From Leucoraja ocellata (Eukaryota), in assembly GCA_036785375.1 (NCBI GenBank), contig JAWMAR010000481.1:1178001-1242000 (forward strand): DNA of 64,000 nt, written 5' to 3'. A program made the translations under genes and the position numbers. Under the pieces are notes generated by a model. It was not told the DNA's origin. It saw only the letters and a program-made list of their open reading frames with translations, and ran no database searches. Below, piece by piece: positions 10,960-62,912 of this stretch (positions within the stretch are counted from its first letter, which is position 1; the number at the start of each line of letters is the position of its first letter).

Positions 10960-11632
10960 GAGTGATCGGAGTGGCGGCGCGGCTCTGGCTGCAGCGGCTT
11001 ACCGGCGGTCCCGTTGTCTTTGTGTTTTTTATGTTGTTTATTTTGTTTGTTTAGTCTAGTTTTTGGTTTTAGCTTGTGTTTTGGGGGGGGGGGGGTGTTG
11101 AAACGGGGTTTGCAGTCTCTCCCTGCGGGGGAATACGACCTTTTTGTCGTATTCCCCTTCTCTGCCTCCGTCTGCACTGAGGCCTAATGGAACTGACGAC
11201 CTCGAGGCTCCGGAGGCAGAGCACCGTCAGGACTCGCCCTGAGCTCGCTCCCGTGAGGGTGGTCCGGCTCAGGGCTGGAAGAGGTTGGGACGCTCCCGTG
11301 AGGACGGCCAGCCCGAGCGTGGAATGAGGCTCCCGTCAGAGCGGCCGAGCTCGGGGAGGTGCGGCGCTGGCAGCCCGATGGAGGTTCGGCGCCCAAGTCG
11401 GGGCGGCCCGGTCTGGGGGAGAAAGCGGCGCCCAAGTCGGGGCGGCCCGGTCCGGGGGAGGGTCGGCGCCCAAGTCGGGGCGGCCCGGTCCGGGGGAGGT
11501 TCGGCGCCCATGTCGGGGCGGCCCAGCCCGAGGCTGAAGACGGCACAGTACTCACGTGAGGGTGGCTGGGACGGTGTTCTGGCGGCGGTGGCCTGAGTCC
11601 GGGGTTCGGCCGCGGGCCAGCAGCTGTTTCTG

Positions 11633-14600
11633 CAGAGTTTAAGAGGGAACTGCAGATGCTGGAGATGCTCATCTGCTTCCTCGGGGCCTGCCTGCGCCTC
11701 CATCTCATACCCCATGGCTTCCAGCTACAGTTCCCTACCTCCCAGTTCGGACCGCAACCGGACCATCGGTACCGACTGGCCATCCACCGGCATACCCAGC
11801 AATTCTCCAACCGGGCACTGAGGTCCACCCTGGCCGCGATGCGCCGACACCAGCAGGAACTTACATCTACACTCCCTGAACTTCAGGCCTCACTTACCCA
11901 GACCTGCAACGGACCCCAATTATATTTTATCCGCCGGAAGATCCACCGCTTCAATCAACAATTCCTGGCCCATCTGAACTCCACCAAGGACCTCAAATTA
12001 TCCCGCCTCCAGGCCGCTCCCGACGGCCCGCAACACCCGCAGACTCCGGGCCCCGACTCTGCCCTGCATCGCCTGCCCGAGTCCCGCGACGCCATCTTGG
12101 CCACGAGGAGCGCCTTCAACACTCACCAGGACGCCGCCTTCACCGACTTCCGCGCTGATGCTGCCGCCGCCGACCCTCACCTGCCCACCGATAACGCCCA
12201 GCCTCGCCGCTACGGTAACTCAGACTTTCTTCTCCCCGCCGATTCCTCCGACCCTCGCTGCTCTCTGGGACAGCCTAGCCTCATCGCCGCACCGGGCCTA
12301 CCCTACGCCACCGCCTCACCGGGCCTCCCCAACAACGCCGCCGGACCCGACCTACCGGGCATCACCGCCGGACCCGACCTACCGGGCATCGCCGCCGGAC
12401 CCGACCCCGACCAACCGGGCATCGCCGCCGGACCCGACCCCGACCCACCGGGCATCGCCGCGGGACCGGGGCCTTCCCAGCATGGCCGCTGCACCACACC
12501 CCGCTCATCCCGTTGCCTCCCCGGGCTGGCCGAGCCTTGCCGCCGCGCCGACCATCCACCCATCGGGACCTCCCACACATCGCCCGCGGACCCCGACTCA
12601 ACCGACCATCGACGCCGGACATCGGGTCCGCTGACCCGCGCCACCGGACTCTCACCATCGGGTCCGCTGACCCTCGCCTCTGGACTACCACCATCGGGTC
12701 CGCTGACCCGCGCCACTCCACCTCCCTCCAACAACCCACAGCCGTCGCCTTACCTGGAGCCTGGACTCTCCACTGGGCCTGAAGCCCTCACGCTGCTCAC
12801 TCCCACTCTCCTGGGTTTGACTCCACTGGGTCCTAGTGCTAGTCGACCCAGCCTGGTCTACCTCAGTGGCAGTTCGACTGAGTCTCCTCCCCCCACCCCC
12901 TCTAACTGTAAGTCTCCTCCCCCCACCCCCTCTAACTGTGTGGCCCCTGCCCTTCCCCACACACACCACAGCCCTCTCACCCCCCCACCCCCTGACCACC
13001 CACCACCCCCCCACCACACATCGCCTCGTCCCCACCTGCCTTCCTCCGGCCCCAACCCCCATCCCTGTCGAGTGTTCACCATCCCCCCCGACCTCCCCCT
13101 CTCCAACACCGAACGGTCCGTCCTCAACAGAGGTCTTACCTTTGTCCCCCTCCGTCCCCACCTCAATGAATTCCGCGCCCACCACGACTTGGAGCGCTTC
13201 TACCGTCGCCTCCGCCTCACAGCTTTCTTCCATGGGAAGGAGTCCTCGCCCCCCACTGATGACCCCTTTTCCCGTCTCCAACGCACCCCCTCCTCGTGGA
13301 ACCCCCCTCGTGGCCAATTTCCGGCTTTAGAACTTTTTATCAATAACTGCCGTCGCGACATCAACCGCCTCAACTTCTCCACTCCCCTGTCTCACTCCAA
13401 TCTCTCACCACAGGAACGTTCTGCCATCGACTCACTCCGCAACAACCCAGATTTGGTTATCAAACCCGCTGACAAGGGAGGTGCCGTGGTAGTCTGGCGC
13501 GCCGATCTCTACAAAGCTGAGGCCACGCGCCAACTATCGGACACCTCCTCCTACTTACCCCTGGACCATGACCCCACTGACGAGCACCAGGCCACCATCT
13601 CCAGCACCATCACCAACTTCATCCACTCCAATGCCCTACCCGACCGAGCCTCCAACCTCATCGTTCCCCAGCCCCGCACAGCCCGATTTTACCTTCTCCC
13701 TAAAATCCACAAACCTGATTGTCCCGGAAGACCCATTGTCTCCGCCTGTTCGTGCCCCACCGAACTCATTTCCAAATACCTTGACTCCATCCTATCACCC
13801 TTGGTTAAATCCCTCCCTACCTATGTCCAAGACACCTCAGACACTCTCCGTCGTCTCCGCGCATTCAATTCTCTAGGCCCTCACCCCCTCATCTTCACCA
13901 TGGACGTCCAATCACTATACACCTCCATCCCCCACCACGATGGTCTCACAGCCCTCCGGTTCTTCCTCGACCAGAGAAGCAACCCATACCCAGCCACTGA
14001 CACTCTCCTCCGCCTAGCGGAGCTGGTCCTTACCCTCAATAACTTCGCGTTCGACTCCTCCCACTTCCTCCAAATACAAGGCGTAGCTATGGGCACACGC
14101 ATGGGCCCCAGCTATGCCTGCCTATTTGTAGGTTACGTCGAGCAATCCTTGTTCAATACATACCAGGGCCCCATCCCCAACCTCTACCTCCGCTACATCG
14201 ACGACTGCTTTGGTGCCACCTCCTGCACCCGCACACAACTGACTGACTTCATCCACTTCACCACTAATTTCCATCCAGAACTGAAATACACCTGGACCAT
14301 TTCCGACACTTCCCTACCATTCCTTGACCTCACTATCTCCATTGCAGGTGATAGACTTCTGACCGACATACACTATAAACCCACTGACTCCCATGGCTAT
14401 CTGGACTACACTTCTTCCCACCCTGCTTCCTGTAAGGACTCCATCCCCTACTCCCAATTCCTCCGTCTACGCCGCATCTGCTCCATGGATGAGGCGTTCC
14501 ACACCAGGACATCTGAAATGTCCTCACTATTCAGGGAACGGGGGTTCCTCTCCTCCACCATAAATGAGGCTCGCACCAGGGTCTCTTCCATACCCCGCAA

Positions 14601-14983
14601 CACTGCTCTCTCTCCCCATCCCCGCACTCGCAACAAGGGCCGAGTCCCCCTAGTCCTCACCTTTCACCCCACCAGCCGTCACATACAAAAAATAATCCTC
14701 CGTCAGTTTCGCCACCTCCAACGTGACCCCACTACTCGCCACATCTTCCCATCTCCCCCCATATCTGCCTTCCGCAAAGACCGCTCCCTCCATAACTCCC
14801 TTGTCAATTCTTCCCTTCCCTCTCGGTCCACCCCCTCCCCGGGCACTTTCCCTTGCGGCCGCAGGAGATGCAACACTTGTCCCTTTGCCTCCCCCCTCGA
14901 CTCCGTTCAAGGACCCAAGCAGTCGTTCCAGGTGCGACAGAGGTTTACCTGCATCTCTTCCAACCTCATCTATTGCGTCATCT
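11633..14983 (+). mobile_element. Young Penelope-like retrotransposon, 3'-truncated within the GIY-YIG endonuclease
   Basis: 16-bp direct repeat CCAGCAGCTGTTTCTG at 11617-11632 and 14984-14999; short inverted tail piece (GGAACTGCAGATGCTGG) at the 5' end; uninterrupted ORF. Confidence 0.85.
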
Positions 14984-15132
14984 CCAGCAGCTGTTTCTGT
15001 AGAACTGGTGGGCGGCAGCTTCAACCACCCCGGGCCGCGGTGTTGAGCCGCGGGACTGTTCTTAACATCGCCCAGGGGGGGGGTATCGCCCCAGCGCAGA
15101 GGGAGAAGAGGAGGGAAGAGACTGCGACCTAA
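11656..15132 (+). CDS. Penelope-like RT ORF (Pro-rich N-terminus, RT, partial GIY-YIG; last ~50 aa are read-through into flank)
   Basis: IKPADKGGAVV, PGRPIVS, FTMDVQSLYTSIP, GVAMGTRMGPSYA, YLRYIDD, LPFLD, CGRRRCNTC, FTCISSNLIYC; the YIGET half is missing. Confidence 0.9.
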   Translation: MLEMLICFLGACLRLHLIPHGFQLQFPTSQFGPQPDHRYRLAIHRHTQQFSNRALRSTLAAMRRHQQELTSTLPELQASLTQTCNGPQLYFIRRKIHRFNQQFLAHLNSTKDLKLSRLQAAPDGPQHPQTPGPDSALHRLPESRDAILATRSAFNTHQDAAFTDFRADAAAADPHLPTDNAQPRRYGNSDFLLPADSSDPRCSLGQPSLIAAPGLPYATASPGLPNNAAGPDLPGITAGPDLPGIAAGPDPDQPGIAAGPDPDPPGIAAGPGPSQHGRCTTPRSSRCLPGLAEPCRRADHPPIGTSHTSPADPDSTDHRRRTSGPLTRATGLSPSGPLTLASGLPPSGPLTRATPPPSNNPQPSPYLEPGLSTGPEALTLLTPTLLGLTPLGPSASRPSLVYLSGSSTESPPPTPSNCKSPPPTPSNCVAPALPHTHHSPLTPPPPDHPPPPHHTSPRPHLPSSGPNPHPCRVFTIPPDLPLSNTERSVLNRGLTFVPLRPHLNEFRAHHDLERFYRRLRLTAFFHGKESSPPTDDPFSRLQRTPSSWNPPRGQFPALELFINNCRRDINRLNFSTPLSHSNLSPQERSAIDSLRNNPDLVIKPADKGGAVVVWRADLYKAEATRQLSDTSSYLPLDHDPTDEHQATISSTITNFIHSNALPDRASNLIVPQPRTARFYLLPKIHKPDCPGRPIVSACSCPTELISKYLDSILSPLVKSLPTYVQDTSDTLRRLRAFNSLGPHPLIFTMDVQSLYTSIPHHDGLTALRFFLDQRSNPYPATDTLLRLAELVLTLNNFAFDSSHFLQIQGVAMGTRMGPSYACLFVGYVEQSLFNTYQGPIPNLYLRYIDDCFGATSCTRTQLTDFIHFTTNFHPELKYTWTISDTSLPFLDLTISIAGDRLLTDIHYKPTDSHGYLDYTSSHPASCKDSIPYSQFLRLRRICSMDEAFHTRTSEMSSLFRERGFLSSTINEARTRVSSIPRNTALSPHPRTRNKGRVPLVLTFHPTSRHIQKIILRQFRHLQRDPTTRHIFPSPPISAFRKDRSLHNSLVNSSLPSRSTPSPGTFPCGRRRCNTCPFASPLDSVQGPKQSFQVRQRFTCISSNLIYCVISSSCFCRTGGRQLQPPRAAVLSRGTVLNIAQGGGIAPAQREKRREETAT

Positions 15133-15451
15133 GACTTTTGCCTCCATCACAGTGAGGAGATGCTGGGTGGACTCACTGTGGTGGATGTTAATGTGTGTTT
15201 ATTGTTGTTTTATTGTATGGTATTATATGTATGACTGCTGCAATTTCGTTCAGATTTCTNNNNNNNNNNNNNNNNNNNNNNNNNNNNNNNNNNNNNNNNN
15301 NNNNNNNNNNNNNNNNNNNNNNNNNNNNNNNNNNNNNNNNNNNNNNNNNNNNNNNNNNNNNNNNNNNNNNNNNNNNNNNNNNNNNNNNNNNNNNNNNNNN
15401 NNNNNNNNNNNNNNNNNNNNNNNNNNNNNNNNNNNNNNNNNNNNNNNNNTT

Positions 15452-26443: not shown

Positions 26444-27398
26444 TTATATTGTTGAACGTAAAATGGTTTCCGAAAACGATGATGGCTCCAAAACTGGTTT
26501 ATTATAAAACCTTTGGAAAATCCTTTCAGATGACCATCCTGCCATTCTGAGGATTTGGTCTGTGGGCACCTCCAGAATATTTTGCTGCGGATGTTGCTGC
26601 AGCCCTGGTGGAATGAGATTTAAAAACATTAGTGTCTATTCCTGCCATCTTTAGGACATATTTGAGCAACCTTGATATAGTTTGGGTCATGACCCTTTTG
26701 TGCGGTTTCTTGTAAGAGATTAACAACGCCATTTCCTGACCTCGAATGCTCTTAGTATATTCTATGTATAATTGGATATGTCTTGCTATACACAGGCGTC
26801 CATCATATGGATATGCCATAAATTCAATCACTTGACCCGATGAACCTGGTCTGTTTTCTTTTATTAAATCCTGTATGACAAACACCAGTTTCTCGGGTGA
26901 GATGATCAGGGAGTCCAGGCTCAGTTTGCTTAATGACTGGACTCGTTGTGCGGTAACTAACGCCATGAGCATAACCATCTTCATGGTCAGTTTCTGAGGT
27001 GACAATGCTGTTATGGGCGACCAGCTCCTCAGCATGTTTAGAACGACACCCACCTCCCAGATTTTGGAGTACCTGGTTTTAGGGGGATTTGCATTGAATA
27101 TGCCCCTCATAAGTTTTGTTACCAGGGGGTGCGTTCCCACCGTGTGCCGCTCCGTTCCTTGTGATAGGTAATTGGAGAGTGCACTTCTGGCACTATTGAT
27201 GGTACTGTAGACCAATCGATTATCATAATGGAGGCTTGTTAAAAATTCCAATACGGCCGGAATGTTCTTGGCCCTTTGGTTGAGGTTGTTGTCAAAGCAG
27301 TATATACCCCATTTCTTGATGTGTCCAAGGTACTGCTTCCGTGTTGACAGTCTTTGTGCAGATGAGATGAGATTCATCGTCCTGTCTGACAGCCCCAT
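26444..27398 (-). pseudogene. DIRS tyrosine recombinase (frameshift near the C-terminus)
   Basis: STINSARSALS, LMALVTAQRVQSL, FKSHSTRAAATS; the ILRMAGWSSERIFQRFY end is in another frame (26444-26629). Confidence 0.9.
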
Positions 27399-27415
27399 GC
27401 CGTGTAGTGGGTCTT

Positions 27416-29322
27416 TCAGACTCTACAAATTAACAAATCCATAGTCTTATGGCATGGATAACTGCACCCAGTCACTGGATGAATTAATAAATTTGGGCTA
27501 TGTCCAATAAGGGAACATGGTTCTAACACCATCCCCTGTATGACCGAATACCACGGTTGAGTAGGCCAATCGGGTACTATGAGAATTCCAGATGCCGAGT
27601 CTTGTTGAATTTTCCTTAGTACCCGATTGATGAGGCAGAACGGGGTAAATGCATAAAAAGGCCATTTCCCCCATATGCAGAGAGAAAGCATCTGTAGCTT
27701 CTGCCCCAGGGTCTGGTTCCCAGGACTCATACCTTGGTAATTGGTGATTCAACCTGGTTGCAAAAAGATCAATATCTGGTCTACCATATTTTGCTGTAAT
27801 TTCAGCAAATATATTTTTGTTTAACATCCATTCCGTGTTTTCGTTAAATTTGTGTGACCTGGTGTCTGCCACTGAATTTAGCTTACCTGGTAGGTATGTT
27901 GCCGATATCCAAACGTTTCTTTGGATATACCATTGCCAAATTAAATTTGCCAATTGATCACAAGATGTCGATATATTTCCACCGATGTGATTAATATATG
28001 CCACCGCGGTGGTATTATCAATTTGTAATCGTACATGCTGGTGCTTAATTGCTGAGCAATATGACTTAAGGCCATAAAATGCCCCTAACATCTCTAGGTA
28101 ATTAATACCACGTGTGTTAAGTAACACTGCCTCTTCTTCCTTCCACCTCCCTCCACAACTGGAAACAGAGTTAGTGGCTCCCCAACCAATGGCGCTGGCA
28201 TCTGTTTGTAATACCATAGACGGGTTGTCAATAATGATGGGGTTGGAGCAATACCTAATGTTATGTACGCACCACTGTAGTTCAATTATAGCTTCCGTAG
28301 GCAGCTCCATAGGTCTATCAAAATGACCCTAGTTAAATTTGAGTGCTCTAATTTGGGCTCTTTGCAAATTTTGATAATGTAATGGCCCAAATTGTGTGGC
28401 CGGGAATGTGGCCACAATCTTCCCAATTATCCGGGCTACCCGTCTAATGGAGAGTCTGTTGGTGTTAAGAAGCTCGCTGCAATCCTCCTGTAGGGCTGCG
28501 GCTTATCTATTGGTAAAGTTATTGACATATTGACCGTGTTAATGATGAATCCTAAATAATCCATATTAGTTGCTGGTATCAATTTACACTTAACTGGATG
28601 GATGATAAACCCTAGTTGTTCAAACAATTGTTTTGTGGCGAGTACTGTTTGATGTGCCAATTCATAAGTTGTGCCAACAATAAAGATGTCATCTAAATAT
28701 GCCATCACCCTATGGCTTTGTTTACGTAACAATGCCAAAGCTGGTTTCAGAATTTTAGTAAATAATCTGGGGGCTGATGTTTGCCCCTTTGGTAAAGCTC
28801 TATATTGCCAAAGTTCCCCCACCCAGTTGAATTTCAAATACCGTCTGTGATCCCCTCTGATGGGTACTGTATGGTATGCATCTTTTAAGTCAATGCTTGC
28901 CATATAGAACCTGACACTAATTCTTTAGCAGTAATAAAAGTATCCATCTTAAAATGAACATATTGAACGAATGTGTTTAGGGTTGAAAGGTCAATGATAA
29001 TCTTGCAACCCCCATCTTTTTTATTTTTAATAAATATGTTTGATACAAATTCTAATTTTTCATGAATAGTATGCTCAATCACACCTTTTGTATACAATCT
29101 TTGTAGCTCCATGTGGGCTTTAGATTGTTCGGTTTTTGTAAGGACAAAATGCCTTTCTGGTGTTTGTTGTACTGGGGGGTTATTGGGATGAGTAAATTCT
29201 ATCAAATAACCCTGAATACTGCTTAGAATATACGAGTCTGTAGTGAATTTATACCATTCATAACTGTAGTATTGCAACCTCCCCCCCACCGTCGTGGGTC
29301 CTTTTTTACAGAAGAAACACAC
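27416..29322 (-). pseudogene. DIRS RT / RNase H / N6A-methyltransferase-like ORF, fragmented
   Basis: VGGRLQ, SIDLKDAY, YLDDI, LQTDASAIGWG, INYLEM, IDNTTAVAYIN, DIDLFATRLN, LIVPDWPTQPWY, spread over several frames. Confidence 0.9.
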
Positions 29323-36367: not shown

Positions 36368-37696
36368 AGAGGGTTATCTGTAAACTGACCGGTGAACCTC
36401 ACTCCCTTCTCTCTCAGCTTGATATCTGTACACTGAGTTGTGAATCTGTGGAATTCTCTGCCACAGCCAACAGTGGAGGCCAATTCACTGGATGTTTTCA
36501 TGAGAGAGTTATATTGAGCTCTTGGTGCTAAATGAATCAAGGAATATGGGGAAAAAGCAGGAATGTGGTACTGATTTTAGATGATCAGCCATGATCATAA
36601 GGGCCAAATGGCCTACTCCTGCACCTATTTATCTATGTTTCTGTTCTACACTGACTGGTGTCTCCCAATCCCTCTCTCTCATGGGGATATCTGTACGCTG
36701 ACCAGTGTCTCTCAATGCCTCTCTCTTGGCATGTTTNNNNNNNNNNNNNNNNNNNNNNNNNNNNNNNNNNNNNNNNNNNNNNNNNNNNNNNNNNNNNNNN
36801 NNNNNNNNNNNNNNNNNNNNNNNNNNNNNNNNNNNNNNNNNNNNNNNNNNNNNNNNNNNNNNNNNNNNNNNNNNNNNNNNNNNNNNNNNNNNNNNNNNNN
36901 NNNNNNNNNNNNNCTCCCTTCTGTAAACGGATCGGTCTCCCTCATTACCTCTCTCTTGGGCATTGTCCCACTGTCAGGGGTATATTTGTACACTCATACA
37001 TGGGATATCTACAGTCTGATACCATTATACCAGCCAAGCTCATTTAAGACCATTATACCAGCCAAGCTCATCACCAAACTCGAGGGACTTGGAGTCAGTA
37101 CTCACCTTTGCAACTGCATTATTGACTTCAGTTCAGTTCAGTTTAGTTTATTCTCATGTGCACAGTGGCATTGTGAAAAGCTTTTGTTGTGTGTTAATCT
37201 GTCAGCAGAAGGACAATGCATGATTACAATTAAGCCATTTAAGGGCATGTCCCACTTAGGCGACTGCCTGCAACTGTCATAGTCGTAGAATGCAGCCGAA
37301 AAACTGGCGACTTGACCCCCCCACAACAATGTCTACGACAAACTCCAACAACATACCACCGAGTCGAAGTCAAGCTAACGCAAGCTACCGACAACCGGCG
37401 ACCCAATCGTCGTGACGTGGGACGTCCACCTACGACAACCTACGACGACACTTACGACAATCTACGACCACACAGGCGACAAGCGGTCAACTTGCATCCA
37501 CCTGCGACAAGCCACGACAAGTTACGACTGTCGGAGACAACTGAAGACAATTCATGTCATTTTGGCCTCCAAAACAATGGAATTATAAGAGGGGATGTAT
37601 TGTTTCCAACATCTGAGGACATTGCTCTCACATGCAGAAGCCCTGCTGCTTGCAGCAGCCCTCATGCTTAAAGATCAGCAAGACAGAAGGACAAGA

Positions 37697-39848: not shown

Positions 39849-39894
39849 ATGGGGGTCGCTGCTTATCTCTGTCTCCTTCTGTCCTGTCTGCCAG
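39849..39894 (+). CDS. IgW (IgX) heavy-chain leader exon
   Basis: MGVAAYLCLLLSCLP+G, phase-1 donor G|GTGGGT; not in the ORF track. Confidence 0.92.
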
Positions 39895-40028: not shown

Positions 40029-40319
40029 GCGTTCGATCCGCGGTCGTGCTGAATCAGAAACCGACCGAGGTGGCAAAGCCCGGAGAGTCCCTCAAACTGA
40101 TCTGTGTAACCAGCGGGTTCACCCTCAACAGCTCCAGCGTGCATTGGGTGAAACAGGTCTCCGGGAAAGGGCTGGAGTGGGTGGGAATGATAAATAATGC
40201 TGCTGAATATTACGCGCCTGCCTTCAGCGGCCGATTCACTGTTTCCAGGGACAGCAGCAATGTCTATCTCCAAATGACCCGCCTGAGTCTGGCCGACACG
40301 GCTACCTATTACTGTGGGG
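40029..40319 (+). CDS. IgW VH exon (open frame)
   Basis: Acceptor TTTGCAG; GVRSAVVLNQKPTEVAKPGESLKLICVTSGFTLNSSSVHWVKQVSGKGLEWVG...RFTVSRDSSNVYLQMTRLSLADTATYYCG with canonical Cys, Trp, Cys. Confidence 0.96.
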
Positions 40320-40358
40320 CACAGTGAGAGGAAACGGGGCCGGGCCGGTACAACAACC
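40320..40358 (+). promoter_or_regulatory. 23-RSS 3' of V
   Basis: CACAGTG (40320-40326), 23-nt spacer, ACAACAACC (40350-40358). Confidence 0.93.
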
Positions 40359-40566: not shown

Positions 40567-40594
40567 GGTTATTGTACGGCGGTGAATCACTGTG
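40567..40594 (-). promoter_or_regulatory. 12-RSS 5' of the fused DJ
   Basis: GGTTATTGT (40567-40575), 12-nt spacer, CACTGTG (40588-40594). Confidence 0.93.
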
Positions 40595-40643
40595 ACTATA
40601 TGAGACTACTGGGGTGCAGGAACCTCGCTGACAGTGACTTCAG
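40595..40643 (+). CDS. Pre-joined D-J segment (ACTATATGA + JH DYWGAGTSLTVTS)
   Basis: WGxG motif and donor CAG|GTAAGA; no 23-RSS before J; TGA at 40601-40603 is in the J frame. Confidence 0.88.
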
Positions 40644-42140: not shown

Positions 42141-43425
42141 GATTAATCTGCCTGTTTCCACACTATTAATCTATGACGCTATGACTCCAGTACCTGCTCC
42201 CGCAAAGCGATCCCATCAAACACATCCAGGTCAGACAGAGCATGAGTCAAATGCAGAATAAATCTCCCCATGTCACTGTGCTGTCAGCTACAGATTAGAT
42301 ACAAAGTTCCATCTTCCTGTCCCAACACTCCCAGGGAAGGGACAGCACAGGTTAGACAAGGAGTGAGGCTCCATCCAACCTGTCTCCACACACACCCAGG
42401 GTACGGGTTAGTCACTGAGTGAAGTTCCCTCTACACTCTCTCCCAGGGCAGGGACTGAGTGTTTGACACAGAGTCAAGCTCCCTCTACATTGCTCTGTCA
42501 AACACTCCTTGTGTAAATGCTTCAGAACACAGAACATTCTCTAGATTGTAAATCACATTGATGCTGGTTCAAAAACAAAGGTTCACAATAATGAATGATT
42601 TGAAAGTAATGAGAGAATGTTGTACATGGTTCTACTGTAGATGTGGGGTTTAGTACACCAGGTTTTCGTTGCGTCTTGTATTGAATTTCAACATTTAGAG
42701 ATCCTTAGTAAGTCAATACCTTTTATTCTTCACTGTGAATTCACTGATGCGCATAGTTTAGATTCTGAGTCAAGTTGCTTGGTGTTTTTGACGTGGGTTT
42801 TGCTGCACAAAAGAGCTGCTTTTTCCCAGTTCACAGATGGAGGCACGGCTCAAATTTGCTGCCCTCCTCCGCCAGCCGACTGACTGGGTTTGTCCAACAC
42901 GTGCTTTGTTCCATTAACCAGGGCTGCTGGTGTCTCAGTGAATCTCAGTGATTGACAGAGCACCTTTCATGGTGTTCCCAAGCGCTTCACAGGCAGTGAG
43001 GCATGTTCACAATAGAGCCGTGTTGTAAAGGAGGGACTGTGGATCCACTCTGCACACAGCAGAATCGGCATACCGCTGGTGAGGGGAAAATGTTGTCCGA
43101 GCCACCACAGTTACAGTGATCCAATGGACGGGCATCAGGCTACAATCAGACCCCAGTTTAATTCCGCAACAACTGTGGAATTTAAACTTTGTTCGTAATC
43201 TGGGACAGATTGGACCAGTGTCAGATTTTCTTTTGTTAGTAACCTGGATTATGTGCACAAATCCACAGTAATGATGACCCCTCAGTTTCCCCGCTGTCCC
43301 TCAGAGGAGGAGATCTATTGTCCTTACCCAGTCGAGCCTATTTCTGACCCCTGACCCAGCAACGCAATTGGCACTAAATGCCCCCAGGATGGCAACCCAG
43401 ACGGGCAATTTATTGCCCCTTCTCA

Positions 43426-44455
43426 CCCCAGCACCCAGCTCCTCCCCCCAACACCCAGCTCCTCCCCCCAGCACCCAGCTCCTCCCCCCAGCTCCTCCCC
43501 CCAGCACCCAGATCCTCCCCCCAGCACCCAGCTCCTCCCCCCAGCACCCAGCTCCTCCCCCCAGCACCCAGCTCCTCCCCCCAGCACCCAGCTCCTCCCC
43601 CCATCACCCAGCTCCTCCCCCCAGCACCCAGCTCCTCCCCCCATCACCCAGCTCCTCCCCCCAGCACCTCCCCCCAGCTCCTCCCCCCAGCACCCAGCTC
43701 CTCCCCCCAGCACCCAGCTCCTCCCCCCAGCACCCAGCTCCTCCCCCCAGCACCCAGCTCCTCTCCCCAGCACCCAGCTCCTCCCCCCAGCACCCAGCTC
43801 CTCCCCCCAGCTCCTCCCCCCAGCACCCAGCTCCTCCCCTCAGCACCCGGCTCCTCCCCTCAGCACCCAGCTCCTCCCCCCAGCTCCTCCCCCCAGCACC
43901 CAGCTCCTCTCCCCAGCACCCAGCTCCTCCCCCCAGCACCCAGCTCCTCCCCCCAGCACCCAGCTCCTCCCCCCAGCACCCAGCTCCTCCCCCCAGCACC
44001 CAGCACCTCCCCCCAGCACCCAGCTCCTCCCCCCAGAACCCAGCTCCTCCCCCCAGCACCCAGCTCCTCCCCCCAGCACCCAGCTCCTCCCCCCAGCACC
44101 CAGCTCCTCCCCCCAGCACCCAGCTCCTCCCCCCAGCACCCAGCTCCTCCCCCCAGCACCCAGCTCCTCCCCCCAGCTCCTCCCCCCAGCACCCAGCTCC
44201 TCCCCCCAGCACCCAGCTCCTCCCCCAGCTCCTCCCCCCAACACCCAGCTCCTCACCCCAACACCCAGCTCCTCACCCCAGCACCCAGCTCCTCCCCCCA
44301 GCTCCTCCCCCCAGCACCCAGCTCCTCCCCCCAGCACCCAGCTCCTCCCCCAGCACCCAGCTCCTCCCCCCAGCACCCAGCTCCTTCCCCCAGCACCCAG
44401 CTCCTCCCCCCAGCACCCAGCTCCTCCCCCCATCACCCAGCTCCTCACCCCAGCT
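43426..44455. repeat. 20-bp C-rich/G-rich tandem array, ~50 units, in the J-CH1 intron
   Basis: Unit CAGCACCCAGCTCCTCCCCC with occasional 12-bp CAGCTCCTCCCC sub-units; explains the Pro/Gly-rich ORFs. Confidence 0.97.
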
Positions 44456-44809
44456 GCTAGTATGATGTGTTTTCCTGTCTCTGACCCACCTCCTGACCAC
44501 ATTAGGAACATTGATCCAAATTAAACTGCACTCACCACCTGCTGATCCCGGGATGGAAAACACTGTGAGCTACAAGTCTCGCCGCCTGATATCATTGATC
44601 CTCCTGCACGAAACACTCGACAGCTCAGGCAGCATCTGTGGGGAGAGAAGCAGAATCACCCTTTCACTTCAGTGCTCTATCATCAAACTCTTTCAGTACA
44701 GTTTCTGACAACCACTATTTCCACTTTTATTTGATGTTTTTTTATTTTGTTGAAGGTTTCCACAACCCCAGGACATCTCAAAGCATTTCCCAGCCCATTA
44801 ATAACTCAG

Positions 44810-46100: not shown

Positions 46101-46406
46101 AGGATGTGGTTTTGCCTTCAGTCCACATCACCTCTTCCTGCAACACGGAATCTGGCCAAGAGATCAGCATCCTCTGTCTGGTCAAGGACTACCTGCCTGA
46201 GATCATCAATCAGACATGGTCCACCAGCTGTGGGGTCATCAACGATGGAATCACAAATTACCCACCAGTGTTGGGACAAAACAACAAGTACACAATGAGC
46301 AGCTTGCTGCGAGTCCCTGTAGCAGATTGGAACAGGAAAACCTACTACTGCAAGGCAGGATCCAAGCCGGACAACATGGTAATAACGGCGTTCTCGAAGC
46401 TTCAAG
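46101..46406 (+). CDS. IgW CH1 exon
   Basis: Acceptor TTTCAG, donor G|GTTAGT; EDVVLPSVHITSSCNTESGQEISILCLVKDYLPEIINQTW...DWNRKTYYCKAG; includes the N-terminal light-chain-linking Cys. Confidence 0.96.
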
Positions 46407-46455
46407 GTTAGTGTGAGATTTTGTTGTCCATTTAAAGCTGATGATAGAACTAAAG

Positions 46456-46932
46456 TGTCCAAACCCTTAATAATCTTAATTAAACTCCAGGGTATACAAG
46501 CCCAGCCGCTCCATTCTCTCAGCACATGACAGTCCCGCCAATCAGGGAATTAACCTGATGAACCTACGCTGCACTCCCTCAATAGCAAGAATGTCCTTCC
46601 ACGCATTAGGGGACCAAAACTGCACACAATACTCCAGGTGTGGTCTCTACTAGGGCCCTGTACAACTGCAGAAGGACTTCTTTGCTCCTATACTCAACTC
46701 CTCTTGTTATAAAGGCCAACATGCCATTCGCTTTCTTCACTCCCTGCAGTACCTGCATGCTTATTTTCATTGACTGATGAACAAGGACCCCAAGATCCCA
46801 TTGTACTTCCCCATTTCCCAACTTGACCCAATTAAGATAGTAATCTGCCTTCCTATTTTTGCTACCTCACATTTATCCACATTAAACTGTATCTGCCATG
46901 CATCTGCCCACTCACCCAAACTGTCCAACTCA
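46456..46932 (-). mobile_element. CR1 fragment lacking both ends
   Basis: KANGMLAFITRGVEYRSKEVLLQLYRAL; stops at IIKGLDT with no 3' UTR or tail. Confidence 0.88.
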
Positions 46933-47173
46933 CCTGTAGATTGCCCTTTCCCTTTCATTGAAATGTCAGTGCCTGGATTATTTTTGAACTCATCTCCACA
47001 CTCTTTAAAGTATTGTCTGATCCTGGATAAAGTGAAGCAGTTTATCGTGGTCGGCATAATCTTATGCTGATAAATACTGAGGACACAGACTGGGAATATG
47101 TGAATCTCCTCTTTCCTCAACACGGGAGGTAAAAATCTCTTAACATTTAAATCAATTAATCTTCCATTTCCAG

Positions 47174-47349
47174 GTGGAGAATGTCCCGGCTGTTCGAAGT
47201 GTCTGCCGAAGTTCATCTACCAGAGTAATCTCAATGTGACATTCTCAGATGGTTCTACCCAGCAGTATCATTGTTGGGCAGGAAAGTGTGAAATAAAGCA
47301 ATTGGCTGCGTATGGAATTTGTCATTCTATTATTACTACCCATTTATAA
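47174..47349 (+). CDS. IgW short-form Cys-rich secretory tail exon
   Basis: Acceptor TTTCCAG; GGECPGCSKCLPKFIYQSNLNVTFSDGSTQQYHCWAGKCEIKQLAAYGICHSIITTHL*; matches the skate IgX tail as remembered; not in the ORF track. Candidate AATAAA at 47624-47629. Confidence 0.9.
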
Positions 47350-49550: not shown

Positions 49551-49853
49551 CATTGGCCGTCTTCATTCAAAATCCTGGCATGAAAGAGATTTGGATCAAC
49601 AAGACCGCTACGCTGGTGTGTTCAGTGATCTGTAGTGATCCGAGCCAGGTCCATCTCACCTGGAAGGTGGGAGGAAAGGAGAGAAGTGAAGGAGTTATGA
49701 CCCGTACACCGAGCCATGAAGGCACCCAAAACCCTGTGACCAGTGAACTCCGGACCAGCGTCGAGGAGTGGACCAGCGGGGTGGAGTTTGTGTGCTTCGC
49801 CCAACAATCTTCATCATCCTCACCAGTGTCAGCGCGGACCAACCATAACAAAG
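49551..49853 (+). CDS. IgW long-form CH3 exon
   Basis: Acceptor CACAG, donor G|GTGGGC; IQNPGMKEIWINKTATLVC...VHLTW...EEWTSGVEFVC (C1-set Ig domain). Confidence 0.93.
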
Positions 49854-50399: not shown

Positions 50400-50717
50400 T
50401 TGAGCCAAATAAACCTGAAGTCAGACTGCTGCTTCAAACACACGAAGAGACCAAGCATAGCCACAAGGTCACCCTCGAGTGTGTGGTCTCTGGATTCTAC
50501 CCAGACCTCATCAACGTCACTTGGAGTAAAGACGGTGCCCTGATCTCCAACAACACCAGCGCTGCACCAACTGCTCTGGAGCAGGCGGGCACTTTCAGTG
50601 CCAGCCACTTCCTGACCATGAGTACAGAGGATTGGAAGTCAGGCTCACGTTTCAATTGTACAGTGTATCATCGCGCCTCCAACACCATCATCACGAAGGA
50701 TGTGAAGAACATCCAAG
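50400..50717 (+). CDS. IgW CH4 exon
   Basis: Acceptor TTCCAG, donor G|GTAGGC; EPNKPEVRLL...VTLECVVSGFYPDLINVTW...EDWKSGSRFNCTVYH. Confidence 0.95.
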
Positions 50718-51715: not shown

Positions 51716-52036
51716 ATGAATGTTCAGATACCCGCCCCTCGGTCACTTTAAGCAAACCTTCCTTCGAAGAGATCTGGATCAACAAAACAGCCACCATTCT
51801 GTGTAAGGTGGTTCACGGTGATTTAGAGGGATTCAGGGTCACCTGGCAAGTGAATGAAATGAAGAGAGAAGACGGGGTGACAACTCGTGGTGTAGAGAGG
51901 ATCGGAGGTACAGACACCATCACCAGCGGACTGACGGTCCCCGCTGCAGAGTGGGAGAGTGGGGCTCTGTACACCTGTGTTGTGGAGGACAAGAGTTTGC
52001 CAACACCGGAGAGCAGATCTTTGCAGAAGCTGACAG
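51716..52036 (+). CDS. IgW CH5 exon
   Basis: Acceptor CCCAG, donor G|GTACGT; ECSDTRPSVTLSKPSFEEIWINKTATILC...EWESGALYTCVV. Confidence 0.95.
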
Positions 52037-55051: not shown

Positions 55052-55437
55052 ATGGAGTTGAGATACGTCCTCAAGTCTACCTCCTCCCCCCTTCATTGGA
55101 TGAGGTGGAGACGGATAAGACAGCCACCTTGACGTGCCTGGTCACCAAATTCTCTCCTGCAGATATCTATGTGGCCTGGATGGCCAACGACACCCTTCTG
55201 AAGACAGGGATCGTGAACCAGCCCGTGACCAAGGACACCAGGAATGGGTGGAACACCATGACCAGTCAGTTGAAGGTTTCTCCAGAGGACTGGAACTGTG
55301 GCACCACCTTCTCCTGTGTTGTGGGACATGGATCCATCACAACCAGTCTATTCAGAAGCATCAATAAATCTCACAGCAAACCCACCCTGGTCAATGTCTC
55401 ACTTGTTCTGACTGACAGCTTTAAATCTTGTGTGTAA
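55052..55437 (+). CDS. IgW CH6 exon with long-form secretory tailpiece
   Basis: Acceptor TTCCCAG; RPQVYLLPPS...TATLTCLVTKFSPADIYVAW...FSCVVGH...KPTLVNVSLVLTDSFKSCV* (NVS sequon, penultimate Cys). Confidence 0.97.
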
Positions 55438-56390: not shown

Positions 56391-57422
56391 ATGAAAAATA
56401 CATCTCCAGGTCAGAGCCCACAGAGGAAAGTGACAAAACACCTGCTGAAGACTCAGGAACATAAAGAAACTGCAAAACTAACCTCTGGAGTGGATTCTGG
56501 AATGGCTACACGATCTAAGACTGAGTTGATCACAAAAGAGAAAACTGAAATGGAGGAATTAAAGAACTCGGTAAGAGATTTGAAAAATGATGTGAAAGCT
56601 GGAAATTTAAACTTGATGGAAAACATACAATCCATTAATGCTGGTAATGAAAAAATACTCGCGGGCATTGGTGCTCTGCAAAAAAGAGTTGATGATGTGC
56701 AAGAAGAGCTAACGGGGAAAATTACTAAGGTGGCAGAAGAGTCCACAAAGATGTTTGAGGCTGTGCATGAAACTATTTCCGCAAATGCAATTGCAGTGAA
56801 AGATTTGGAAGCTGTTGTGGAAGAGATGGCTGGAGAAATGGAGGCAATGAAGTTAGAATTAGACAGCCTCAAGAGCCAATTTACAAAAGTATCTGATAAA
56901 TGTGTTGAACTAGAAGCTCGCTCAAGACGTCAAAATATACGAATACGTGGAGTGAAAGAGGGAGCTGAGGGGGAAAACGCTCGTGAGTTCACTGCCAATT
57001 TAATCAAACATGTACTCAATTTACCTGAGGCACCAGTAATTGAAGAAGCACATCGACTACCTAGATTTAAACCAAGATTTCAAGGAGAACAAGCCTACCC
57101 ACGACAGATCATAGTCAAACTTCGGGATATCCCAACAGTGGAAGCGCTGATGAAAAAAATTAAACACGGAGAGAAGATGATGTATGGAAATGATTCTATT
57201 AAACTTCTACGGGACTACCCTTATGAGATTGTGCAAAAGAGAAGAAAGTTCTCACAGACCAGAGAAGCTCTCTACGGTGTCAAGGGCGTCATATGTGGAG
57301 TGTTTTATCCGGCTAGGATGCGTATCACTTTCAAGGGAATCTCAAAAACATTCACTAACCCGGTAGAATCCCTTAAATACGCTCAAGAAATCGTGGCTAA
57401 GGCAGCAACAAAAGAAGATTGA
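56391..57422 (+). CDS. L1 ORF1p
   Basis: Coiled coil, LEARSRRQNIRIRGVKEG, IEEAHR, PRQIIVKL, YPARMRI. Confidence 0.93.
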   Translation: MKNTSPGQSPQRKVTKHLLKTQEHKETAKLTSGVDSGMATRSKTELITKEKTEMEELKNSVRDLKNDVKAGNLNLMENIQSINAGNEKILAGIGALQKRVDDVQEELTGKITKVAEESTKMFEAVHETISANAIAVKDLEAVVEEMAGEMEAMKLELDSLKSQFTKVSDKCVELEARSRRQNIRIRGVKEGAEGENAREFTANLIKHVLNLPEAPVIEEAHRLPRFKPRFQGEQAYPRQIIVKLRDIPTVEALMKKIKHGEKMMYGNDSIKLLRDYPYEIVQKRRKFSQTREALYGVKGVICGVFYPARMRITFKGISKTFTNPVESLKYAQEIVAKAATKED

Positions 57423-58358
57423 TCACCAGACGTCATGAACTAATTAATGTGCTTATTCCCCCAACAAGAATATTAGTAGAAAATTGAAAAAAGTGAATAA
57501 CACCAAGCTTTAAAAATGATTATTCGCAACAGATTTTCCACGAGACATGTCTAGACATTATAATCTTCTCTCGAATTTAATTCAAGGACATGCGATGCTC
57601 AAACCAGGAAACATTGATAACAGAAGAATGCAGTTCTGCTGAAGCTGAGAGAGACTGAAAAACATCACATGGCTTACATACTCTTACAGACTCTTACAAA
57701 GTATAGAGAATTATTAGTAATTAATAACTAACAATACTAATACATAAACTGATATTGATAAAAATGTGTTATAACGCAGACAACATGGTAATCTCACAGG
57801 TTCCGCAGCTCGAGTGGGGAGGGGAAGAGACTCAGGCACCTGGCTTAATTCCAGGAGCCTGACTCTGTTTAACCCTTTCAACGAACAGCTCACTTTTAAC
57901 AATACTAAAACCAATTACAAATAGTTAAGAGATAAAGAGAGAGGAATATATGTAACTGAATACTTGATTAGATTTGATAAGTCGGAATGAAACATATATA
58001 TATATATACTGCAATGGGGTGAAATAGAACTGATTTGGAAACGGTACCTACCCCCTAGGTTATGAGTAATAAAGTCAGTGGGGCTAACCTCATAACAGCT
58101 ACGCCGGAAGCAATATTGATGTCGTATCCCACAGACGAGTGGGCCACTCACTACGGTGTCGGAAACCCAGACACCGTACATTTATTCTATATACTTTTTG
58201 TTTTAATCACAATATGTCACATTTATGTGTTTTTTTTTCAAGGACAATCGCGGAGGGGAACTACCAAGAAAGTCTATAATATAAATGCTCCCAAAATAAC
58301 CAGAGTCCTGAGGTATGGATGCACCATAGTAAGTAAGGTCATTAAAATTGGTAAAAAT

Positions 58359-61300
58359 GTATGACGACAATCAAAGGAAAATGGGAGGAGTCACACTATG
58401 TAGTTGGAATATAAGGGGTATTAATGAACCTATTAAAAGGGGCAAGATACTAGCTCAGTTGAAAGCATACAACACGGACATTTCGTTCCTACAGGAAACG
58501 CATCTTAAACATCAAGATCAGACGAGACTGAGGGCTAACTGGATAGGCCAAACATTTCACTCTTCATTCACTTCTAAATCCAGAGGTACTGCAATTATTA
58601 TTCGTAAAGGAATTCCATTTAAATCAAAGAATACTATTTCAGATAAGGAAGGGAGATATCTTATAGTAGCAGGAGAGATCAATAATACGCCAATTACGCT
58701 GGTAAATATATATGCGCCCAACTTTGATAACCCTCAATTTTTTAATAAAATTCTGAATATAATTGCAGAATTTAATTATCAAAATGTTATAATTGGAGGA
58801 GACTTCAACTGTGTTTTAGACCCTTATTTAGATAAATCGATGCAAAAACAAAAAGGTAATATGAAATCTAAAACCAGTGAACTCTTACATACATATATGG
58901 AAAACACAAATATAGCAGATGTATGGAGGATTGCAAATCCGACGGGAAGGGACTACTCGTTCTATTCAACGGTGCATAAAACATATTCACGGATAGACTA
59001 TTTTCTTGTGGATACAAAATTAATTACACACACTATGAATCCTAAATACCACATTAATGCGATTTCAGATCACTCTCCTTTAACCTTTGTTTTAAAATTA
59101 GAAGGAATGTCTATGAATAAATCGTTCTGGAGGTTTAATTCGCAACTTTTAAAAGACCCACAAGGGAGTATATATCTAAAAAAACAGATGGACTTATTCT
59201 TTGAGATAAATGATACACCAGATATATCCCCCACGCTATTATGGGAATCCTTTAAAGCATTTATTAGAGGAGTCATTATTTCATTTCAAGCTTATCAAAA
59301 TAAAAAGAATAAGAAAGAACAAAGACATTTAGAAGAACAAATAAAACAATTAGATACAGATAATGCTAAAGATCCAACTATGGATAAACATAATAAAATC
59401 CTATTATTGAAATTCAAGCTGAATAAATTATTGTCAGAGAAAGTTATAACATTATTCCAAGTTACAAAACAAGAACACTTTGAATTCGGGGACAAACCAC
59501 ACAAACTTTTAGCACGCCAATTGAAAAAACGGGAAAAAGAGAATGCAATACTAAAGATTAAATCAGATAGTGGGGAATTATTAACATTACCCAAGGATAT
59601 CAATAAAAGATTTGCTCAATTTTACGAAAATCTATATACATCTAAAACGTCAATAGATAATAATAAAGTTTCAGAATTTCTGGAAAATTGTAACCTCCCA
59701 AAATTAGAATTGAGGGAACAAGAGGAACTGGGAGCAACAATTACTTCTAAGGAGATAGAAGACACAATAAAAACACTAAAGAACGGCAAAACACCAGGAC
59801 CAGACGGATTCAGTAGTGAATTCTATAAAGCCTTTTACGATATAGTTACCCACGATTACAGAAAATGTATACATACGCTTTTAAAGAGCAAAGCTTACCC
59901 GAAACTTTAGCAGAATCAACGATCACATTAATACTTAAAAAAGATAAAAACATAGAAGAACCAGGCTCATATAGAGCTATTGCTTTGTTAAATACGGATC
60001 AAAAAATAATAGCGAAAACACTAGCCAGTAGACTAAGCAGGTACGTTAGTAGATTAATAAATGGAGATCAAACAGGATTTATACCTAAGAGACACTCATT
60101 CAATAATTTGAGACGTTTGCTTAACATAATGCACTCACAAAAATCTCACGACCAAGAGTCATCTATTATCTCACTGGACGCAGAAAAAGTGTTTGATCAA
60201 GTAGAATGGGATTATATGATTAAAGTATTGCAAAAATTCCAATTGGGAGAAAACTTTATCGCATGGATAAAACTATTATATAACAAACCTACGGCTAGAA
60301 TATTAACTAATAATATTTTATCCTCGAAATTTGAACTATCAAGGGGCAATAGACAAGGATGCTCATTATCACCGCTGTTATTTGCTTTGGTAATTGAACC
60401 CCTTGCTGAAAAAATAAGAACACATCCGGATATTTATGGTTATAATACAAAATACTCAAAGAATAAAATATCCCTATATGCCGATGATGTACTACTGTAC
60501 ATCACAAAACCACAAATTAGTATACCAAACATATTAAATTTAATTGAAGACTTTGGATCCTTTTCGGGATATAGAATAAATTGGAACAAAAGTGAAATTA
60601 TGTCGATAAAACCAAAAGACTCAACACATCTTCGGAAATTTCCCTTTAAAATAGCTACAGAAAAATTCAAATATTTGGGAATTGAAATTATTAGAAATTA
60701 CCAGGATATGTTTAAAGCCAATTATAATCCCTTACTCAAGAAATTGAATAATCTGATTAAATTCTGGAAAACACTTCCGATGTCCTTAATAGGCAGAATA
60801 AATGCTATTAAAATGATTTTCTTACCACAAATTCTATACCTATTTCAATCAATACCTATATATCTCCCAAAAAAGTTTTTCAAAAAATTGGACTCAGACA
60901 TTACAAATTTTATATGGGATTATAAATCCCATAGAATACAAATAGCACACCTTAATAAACGAAAAGAGCTGGGGGGTCTAGCGCTCCCTAATTTTATGTA
61001 TTATAATTGGGCAGTAAATATTAAAAATATGATTCACCTGCTGGACAATTCTGCACAGCAGGCGGACTGGATGGTAATGGAAAAAGGGGACTGCTCCCCG
61101 AGTAATATAGGAGCGACCATCCTCTCACCAATAAATTTGAATAATAAAAATTATAATAAAAATCCAATTATACATAACACAATAAGAACATGGAAACAAA
61201 TAAAACAGAATTTAAAATTAAGAAACCTATCTCTTTTAATACCAATAGTCAATAATCCATTGTTTAAACCATCAATCATAGACAAATCATTTATACAATG

Positions 61301-62912
61301 GGAAAGAATGGGAATCAAAACGCTCGAAGATCTGTATGAATTGGGGAATTTACTATCATTTCAACAACTACAACTGAAATATAATTTGAAAAATAACCAA
61401 TATTTTAAATATCTTCAAATTTGTGATTATCTGAAAAAACACACAAAAGACTATCATAATATGCCTTCCGACTTATTGGATGAAGCAATGAAGACCAAGG
61501 CGGAATCAGCTAATTTAATATCGTACCTATATAATATCATTTTAAACATAGAAATACCCACAACAGATGGAATTAGAAAAGATTGGGAACAAGAATTAGC
61601 TATAAAAATCTCAAAAGAGACCTGGGATAATCATTTACTACAGGTACATGGTAAATGGTAGGGAATTGAAGAATACAGTTGAACAGAGGGATCTGGGTAT
61701 AACCGTGCATAGTTCCTTGAAGGTGGAATCTCATATAGATAGGGTGGTAAAGAAAGCTTTTGGTATGCTAGCCTTTATAAATCAGAGCATTGAGTATAGA
61801 AGCTGGGATGTAATGTTAAAATTGTACAAGGCATTGGTGAGACCAAATCTGGAGTATGGGGTACAATTTTGGTCGCCAAATTATAGGAAGGATGTCAACA
61901 AAATAGAGAGAGTACAGAGGAGATTTACTAGAATATTGCCTGGGTTTCAACAACTAAGTTACAGAGATAGGTTGAATAAGTTAGGTCTTTATTCTCTGGA
62001 GCGCAGAAGGTTAAGGGGGGACCTGATAGAGGTCTTTAAAATGATGAGAGGGATAGACAGAGTTGATGTGGACAAGCTTTTCCCTTTGAGAATAGGGAAG
62101 ATTCAAACAAGAGGACATGACTTCAGAATTAAGGGACAGAGGTTTAGGGGTAATATGAGGGGGAACTTCTTTACGCAGAGAGTGGTGGTGGTGTGGAATG
62201 AGCTCCCAGTGGAAGTGGTGGAGGCAGGTTCATTGGTATCATTTAAAAATAAATTGGATAGGCATATGGATGAGAAGGGAATGGAGGGTTATGGTACGAG
62301 TGCAGGCAGGTGGGACTAAGGGGAAAAAAATTTGTTCGGCATGGACTTGTAGGGCCGAGATGGCCTGTTTCCGTGCTGTAATTGTTATATGGTTATATGG
62401 TTATATAGGTGCATAAATGTTCGATCAACGTACGACATACGCTCATCCAATTTAAAACATTACATAGATTATATTATTCAAAAACTAAATTAAATAAAAT
62501 CTTCCCTAATGTTTCACCAATCTGTGATAAATGCCTGTGTCAAGAAGCTACCATAGCGCACTCTTTTGTTTTTTGTACAAAAATCCAAAAATTCTGGTAT
62601 GAAATATTTGATATTTTTTCAAAATTGATCAAAATAAAACTGGTACCAAAACCAGAATGGATTATCTTCGGAATATCGGAAGGTAACCCTGAATTAAACG
62701 TGTTTCAGAAGAATTTATTTAATTACGGGCTAATAATGGGAAAAAAGCTTATACTTAAATTCTGGAAAAATGCGTCGACACCAACAATAAAAATGTGGAT
62801 ATCAAATATGTTTGAAACATTACATCTGGAAGAGATGAGATTCCTCCTAGCAGGTAAAGCAGACCAATTCCAAAAGACGTGGTCTATGTTTCTGGACCTA
62901 TTACAAGTATGA
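58359..62912 (+). pseudogene. L1 ORF2 (APE endonuclease, RT, Cys-rich C-terminus); frameshift at ~59851 and CR1 insertion
   Basis: SWNIRGIN, FLQETH, NIYAPN, GGDFN, SRIDYF, SDH; KTPGPDGF; SLDAEKVFD; RQGCSLSPLLF; LYADDVL; CDKC...AHSFVFC. Confidence 0.93.
61646..62406 (+). mobile_element. Young CR1 inserted into L1 ORF2
   Basis: Open 223-aa CR1 C-terminus, (GGTTATAT)n tail; flanks AGGTACAT / AGGTGCAT; L1 peptide HLLQVH|KCSINVRH rejoins across it. Confidence 0.93.

Follow-up and report, generated by a model that had tools for sequence, protein, structure and literature searches.

A genomic deletion of CH2 shared by six IgW heavy-chain clusters of Leucoraja ocellata, and the CH2-less chains predicted from them

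The window, which is the whole 64,000-nucleotide stretch of Leucoraja ocellata DNA analysed here, contains one IgW cluster consisting of a leader, a V exon, a joined D1-J, CH1, a 767-bp intron, a Cys-rich tail, and CH3 to CH6. The names CH3 to CH8 were assigned by order and by likeness to database models. P0007, a little-skate IgX cDNA protein, served as the comparison sequence for CH1 and the tail.

39849..39894, forward strand: IgW leader exon with an ATG and a phase-1 donor; 8 of the 10 clusters share its sequence exactly
40029..40319, forward strand: open VH exon ending in YYCG (Pfam V-set, E 3.6e-12)
40320..40358, forward strand: V recombination signal with a 23-bp spacer; heptamer and nonamer match the unjoined sister clusters
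40567..40594, forward strand: 5' recombination signal of D1 with a 12-bp spacer, the same in C1442b and C1015a/b
40595..40643, forward strand: germline-joined D1-J with D2 lost and a TGA at 40601-40603 in the J frame, by comparison with unjoined clusters
46101..46406, forward strand: open CH1 exon, phase 1-1 (Pfam C1-set; 87% identical to P0007)
46407..47173, forward strand: CH1-to-tail intron, 767 bp
47174..47349, forward strand: Cys-rich secretory tail of the short form (95% identical to the P0007 tail)
49551..49853, forward strand: open CH3 exon (frame, Pfam, spliced contigs)
50400..50717, forward strand: open CH4 exon (frame, spliced contigs)
51716..52036, forward strand: open CH5 exon (frame, spliced contigs)
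55052..55437, forward strand: open CH6 exon with the long-form secretory tail (frame, genome-wide CH6 search)

The identity of CH1 and the tail to P0007 indicates that this is a skate IgW locus. The V signal with its 23-bp spacer and the D1-J join with its 12-bp-spacer signal give the arrangement of a V-D-D-J minicluster, and the IgW-type CH1, Cys-rich tail, CH3 to CH6, long secretory tail, further C-domain pairs and TM exon are all those of IgW. The TM exon of this cluster lies beyond the window, at about G000:C481:1256475. A canonical IgW cluster has CH2 between CH1 and the short tail; here CH2 is deleted, and the cluster is an IgW-derived variant rather than a canonical IgW cluster. Between CH6 and TM, the region G000:C481:1245000-1257000 and the sister clusters carried one to four extra CH3/CH4-like exon pairs, which varied in number and in some copies held stops or frameshifts. 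Individual downstream CH7/CH8-like copies were damaged in C1015a and C1442b, and the downstream CH3-like copy in C128a and C128b (L016, L017) had a deletion at its start, with 17 gap columns relative to the window copy.

The first-pass annotation had proposed that the CH2 exon is missing, that only 767 bp separate CH1 from the tail, and that a deletion breakpoint lies near 46456, where a CR1 element lacks its 3' end. These proposals were borne out by a CH2 search and an alignment to paralogous clusters, checks of the kind that it had suggested. A six-frame Ig-motif scan of the window found only V, CH1, CH3, CH4, CH5 and CH6, and neither of the runs of N (15260-15449 and 36737-36913) falls between J and CH3. 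When the CH2 of an intact paralogue was used as the query against the genome, four true matches were obtained (88-100% identity, the next at 36% or less), none of them in or near the window cluster. A displaced CH2 elsewhere in the genome was rejected as a candidate, as the only four true matches among the best candidates scored genome-wide sit in other clusters. Alignment to the intact paralogue C481b defined a deletion of 2,124 bp that took CH2 together with the 3' end of the CR1, and the following two features mark its edge.

46455..46457, forward strand: GTG microhomology of 3 nt at the deletion junction, from the C481b alignment and the junction 30-mer
46458..46940, reverse strand: CR1 remnant, C-terminal region of the reverse transcriptase, 3' end removed, by comparison with C481b

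The breakpoint lies 51 nt past the CH1 donor on one side and inside the reverse-strand CR1 on the other, with GTG flanking both, and the 3-nt microhomology suggests repair of the break by end-joining. About 330 bp of the CR1 3' end are missing from the window, whereas C481b has the complete element and C128a lacks it; this indicates that the CR1 inserted first, the deletion followed, and amplification came last. Close to the junction, the window copy has lost another 29 bp of its own. A scan of the shortened intron in three copies, with a crude splice score, revealed no open exon that could replace CH2, and the idea that the CR1 remnant supplies a hinge-like exon was rejected for these three copies.

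Own-genome searches recovered at least 10 CH1, at least 10 CH6 and at least 4 CH2 exons of IgW type; the counts are lower bounds because the searches score the best candidates only. CH2 was present in C481b, C3005, C128a and C128b, and the window cluster, C1442a, C1442b, C1015a, C1015b and C2945 lacked it. The junction 30-mer was found in 6 of the 10 clusters, on four contigs. Clusters C1015a and C1015b were 99.8% identical over 50 kb, while the other compared pairs were mostly 95-99% identical, and these two may be one locus assembled twice. Some small contigs are possibly alternative haplotypes, which makes the locus count for a haploid genome uncertain. The loss of CH2 is a stronger case than the first-pass annotation had held, because the deletion defines a subfamily of six clusters (five distinct); its reading as a genomic domain deletion rather than a splice variant agrees with the 2,124-bp loss that clips a CR1. 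We are close to certain that the deletion is real, germline and common to a subfamily.

The introns of the deleted clusters mostly differed by 0.4-2%. In the CH1 region the six deleted copies formed one clade (98/97), whereas in CH3-CH4 they were intermixed with intact clusters, and over 24 kb the 3' half of the window matched that of the intact C3005 at 99.3%, so sequence is exchanged between clusters. On this evidence, the deletion arose once and was then amplified. A young L1-type element with ORF1, endonuclease and reverse transcriptase lies just 3' of CH6 (window 56391-61658); C3005 and C1015b have it too, C481b and C1442a/b do not, and it marks exchange between clusters. The J-CH1 intron contains a C-rich minisatellite with units of about 20 bp (window 43419-44458), which is reduced in length in C481b and C3005 and seems to be missing from the C128 clusters. 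Elsewhere in the window, a GC-rich frame of 1,190 codons (11560-15129, forward strand) had a weak reverse-transcriptase match and a second frame (26529-28328, reverse strand) a weak tyrosine-recombinase match, both below the Pfam cut-off; these frames are likely to be DIRS-type elements.

Four of the deleted copies, C1442a, C1442b, C1015a and C1015b, had V, CH1, tail, CH3-CH6 and TM exons that were all open, and recombination signals resembling those of CH2-bearing clusters. Their V exons, judged by eye, differed mainly in CDR-like loops. The TM exon was open in all 10 clusters. Two of the six deleted copies were damaged, the window copy by a stop in D-J and C2945 by a stop in CH1. Germline joining also differed by cluster: D1-J was joined in the window, VD1 in C1442a, VD1 by another join in C481b and C3005, and VD1 together with D2J in C2945, while C1442b, C1015a/b and C128a/b were unjoined. 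Such varied joins among clusters only 1-3% apart suggest repeated, recent germline RAG activity.

Three traits single out the window copy: the D1-J with its TGA, the shortened end of the V exon, a few nt short of the V exons of unjoined sisters, and the stop-less tail. In its D1-J join, D1 was trimmed by 5 nt, 1 nt was added and J was trimmed by 8 nt. For a V-to-DJ join to be productive, trimming has to take 7 nt or more off the D end so that the TGA is lost, which is unusual; trimming of this extent is possible, since an 8-nt trim is present in the window's own join. The usual tail stop, kept by the other nine clusters, is CAA at 47299-47301 in the window, giving a tail of 57 rather than 41 residues that reads 16 residues further, past the first AATAAA, and the mRNA would be stop-less if that AATAAA is used. 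The TGA and the lost tail stop, like the recurrence of the junction in 6 of 10 clusters, go beyond what the first-pass annotation had described. Among the open members of the CH2-less subfamily the window copy ranks as the weakest, and it is likely to be rarely used. Inter-cluster switching is known in sharks, according to passages of PMC4279169, and by analogy with such reports the window copy could act as a constant-region acceptor for other clusters.

All constant-exon junctions and the TM acceptor were in phase 1, so CH1 could be joined in frame to the tail, to CH3, to the CH7/CH8-like pairs or to TM, and the four sister clusters with open exons lead to a prediction of V-CH1-tail and V-CH1-CH3-CH4-CH5-CH6 chains. 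The first-pass annotation had predicted a V-CH1-tail and a five-domain isoform from phase-1 exons; the phases were confirmed and both splices would be in frame, but the prediction is weakened for the window copy itself, because its D1-J TGA demands at least 7 nt of D trimming.

The sequences show that a CR1 inserted behind CH2 in one skate IgW cluster and that a single germline deletion then removed CH2; the break was probably repaired by end-joining. Copies of this deleted cluster make up 6 of the 10 IgW clusters in the assembly, and they have kept exchanging their 3' halves with CH2-bearing clusters. We propose that in the intact sister copies, ordinary splicing would carry the CH1 donor to the next acceptors and yield three products: a secreted V-CH1-Cys tail chain without Fc, a secreted V-CH1-CH3-CH4-CH5-CH6 chain, and a membrane V-CH1-(CH7-CH8)-TM chain. 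To be productive, the window copy would need to lose 7 nt or more from D, or to receive a VDJ from another cluster by inter-cluster switching. We put the probability that intact sister copies express the predicted CH2-less heavy chains at roughly 55%. The bolder version, in which most IgW clusters encode a secreted, single-C-domain, F(ab')2-like V-CH1-tail without Fc plus a five-domain long form, as a young IgW subclass made by one deletion and cluster duplication, is doubtful. The tail has five Cys, and a disulfide-linked F(ab')2-like product is a candidate. An AlphaFold model of the canonical short IgW (P0007) was uninformative, having a mean pLDDT of 65 with the tail mostly below 50, and among the 60 matches listed from a PDB sequence search there were only mammalian-type antibody chains.

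The main rival to expression of CH2-less chains is that the deleted clusters are silent: young duplicates that hitch-hiked on amplification and make little or no antibody, with frames kept open by recency and homogenisation, and that yield at most V segments or sterile transcripts. We regard this as a serious possibility, somewhat short of even odds. Introns only about 1-2% different, 3' halves held in common with intact clusters over distances such as the 24 kb shared with C3005, and damage already present in two of six copies are what this explanation would give, but four copies have kept V exons, recombination signals and TM exons open, with V differences mainly of the CDR-like kind.

None of the listed runs is recorded as containing RNA from the stretch, which counts as evidence in neither direction. 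Four sequencing runs were aligned to a 9.9-kb stretch, where CR1 and SINE reads dominated. Run X4 gave a 2,399-nt contig of CH1, a 299-nt segment and CH3-CH4-CH5-CH6, and run X1 an 832-nt contig linking CH1 to CH3 with a CH2-sized insert; no CH2-less transcript was seen, both of the listed contigs that splice CH1 to CH3 holding an insert of CH2 size. Reads of run X21 showed the CH1 end of CH2-bearing clusters (7/7 at 46381, 6/6 at 46389 and 6/6 at 46394). None of the 15 joints listed, out of 4,850, was a CH1-tail or CH1-CH3 joint, and all 15 came from repeats. As contigs drop rare forms and the sampled organisms may lack the deletion, these negative results are weak evidence against expression. 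Protein searches gave similarly weak negatives: no CH2-less IgW protein was found among 9 of 15 database matches compared, all 9 having CH2 after CH1; the tail followed CH2 in 3 of 3 tail-bearing matches (from 5 candidates); and a search for short proteins of 55-177 aa returned 0 matches from 1 candidate. The X4 contig and two little-skate database proteins, P0007 and P0001, have CH2 alongside a CH1 that carries the codon loss; none of the ten clusters pairs the two, and P0001 has CH3-CH4 doubled. The CH1 type of X4 matches none of the ten clusters, so cluster content may vary, and indeed seems to vary, between animals or close species.

Selection on the exons was read in two ways. Changes segregating among the six deleted copies comprised 21 synonymous, 36 non-synonymous and 1 nonsense. 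A dN/dS estimate, suggested in the first-pass annotation, did not separate the groups and was uninformative: it was 0.71 (P 0.11) in the deleted copies and 0.75 in the four intact clusters, neither significantly below 1. A ratio indistinct from neutrality is consistent with silent duplicates, yet the intact clusters have an equally high one. Counted over 1,731 exon nt, the six copies had no frameshift and one nonsense change, where intron rates predicted 6.7 loss-of-function changes (P ~0.01); the intron indel rate includes 1-2-bp events that are possible errors and the count omits the window D-J stop, the lost tail stop and the downstream extra exons. This deficit argues against silence, but CH1 and the tail alone had 1 loss-of-function change against 1.8 expected; most of the open-frame signal came from CH3-CH6, which exchange with intact clusters. 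Such exchange can produce the same deficit, which is therefore confounded.

A far less probable explanation, now largely refuted, is that the deleted subfamily was positively selected, with the CH1 C-terminus remodelled to sit on its new neighbour. The six deleted clusters are indeed set apart from the four intact ones by the loss of one codon and by five amino-acid substitutions within the final 22 codons of CH1, whereas the neighbouring 51 intron nt are identical to C481b. The same CH1 end, however, is found together with CH2 in the Amblyraja radiata gene model P0006, and P0007 has both CH2 and the codon loss, so these changes are older than, or independent of, the deletion, and adaptive remodelling was rejected. 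Least probable of all is an assembly artefact in which CH2 was collapsed or misplaced: the junction is known from the assembly alone and C1015a/b are near-identical, but it recurs identically in six clusters, spread over four contigs, and these clusters have diverged in their flanks, carry separate insertions and belong to one CH1 lineage; the window copy also carries its private 29-bp loss.

The reading that intact sister copies express CH2-less chains was compared with known systems. Passages of PMC4279169, PMC5192425 and PMC6795676 describe IgW forms, generated by alternative splicing, that have 2, 4, 6 or 8 C domains. Skate IgW/IgX is known in a short form, V-CH1-CH2-Cys tail (P0007 of little skate and P0010 of clearnose skate), and a long form of six C domains; the window cluster has the same exons in the same order, with the CH1 and tail identities to P0007 given above, and the CH2 of C481b reads by eye like that of P0007. 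In contrast, CH2 of the window subfamily is deleted in the genome and the predicted forms have 1, 3 or 5 C domains. The closest known case is nurse shark IgM1gj, likewise a cartilaginous-fish IgH cluster without CH2, and abundant in neonatal serum according to passages of PMC5192425 and PMC4279169. IgM1gj is of IgM class, with a fully germline-joined VDJ, is a proven serum protein and keeps Fc domains, whereas the window subfamily has IgW constant domains in six clusters that still undergo rearrangement, none of them fully joined, a short form predicted to have no Fc domain, and is known here from genes alone; it therefore does not belong to the IgM1gj type, defined by IgM domains and a fully joined VDJ. 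In Antarctic teleost IgT, CH2 was reduced by genomic change to a hinge-like remnant of 8-17 residues (passages of PMC7916673), while the skate subfamily lost the whole exon, with no open replacement in the three copies scanned. IgW domain forms, IgM1gj and Antarctic IgT are covered jointly in passages of PMC5192425, PMC4279169, PMC6795676, PMC7916673, PMC12227049, PMC2435157 and PMC5037838. No description of a CH2-less IgW was found in the literature searched; the primary IgW and skate IgX papers lie outside that search, and an earlier report is possible. Duck IgY(deltaFc), a naturally Fc-less secreted antibody, retains both CH1 and CH2 and arises through alternative RNA processing.

In this assembly the CH2-less subfamily outnumbers the intact clusters, while the described IgW forms all have an even number of C domains. 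To our knowledge, the function of IgW is unknown, and the subfamily provides a natural experiment on the roles of CH2 and the Cys tail. With IgM1gj as the first, it would represent a second, independent loss of CH2 among cartilaginous fish, observed while the copies are only about 1-2% divergent, and a secreted V-CH1-tail chain, if real, would rank with the smallest antibodies of conventional type. Even silent clusters would illustrate the reshaping of antibody clusters by deletion, duplication and exchange, and would caution that counting clusters gives too high a figure for the IgW repertoire in use.
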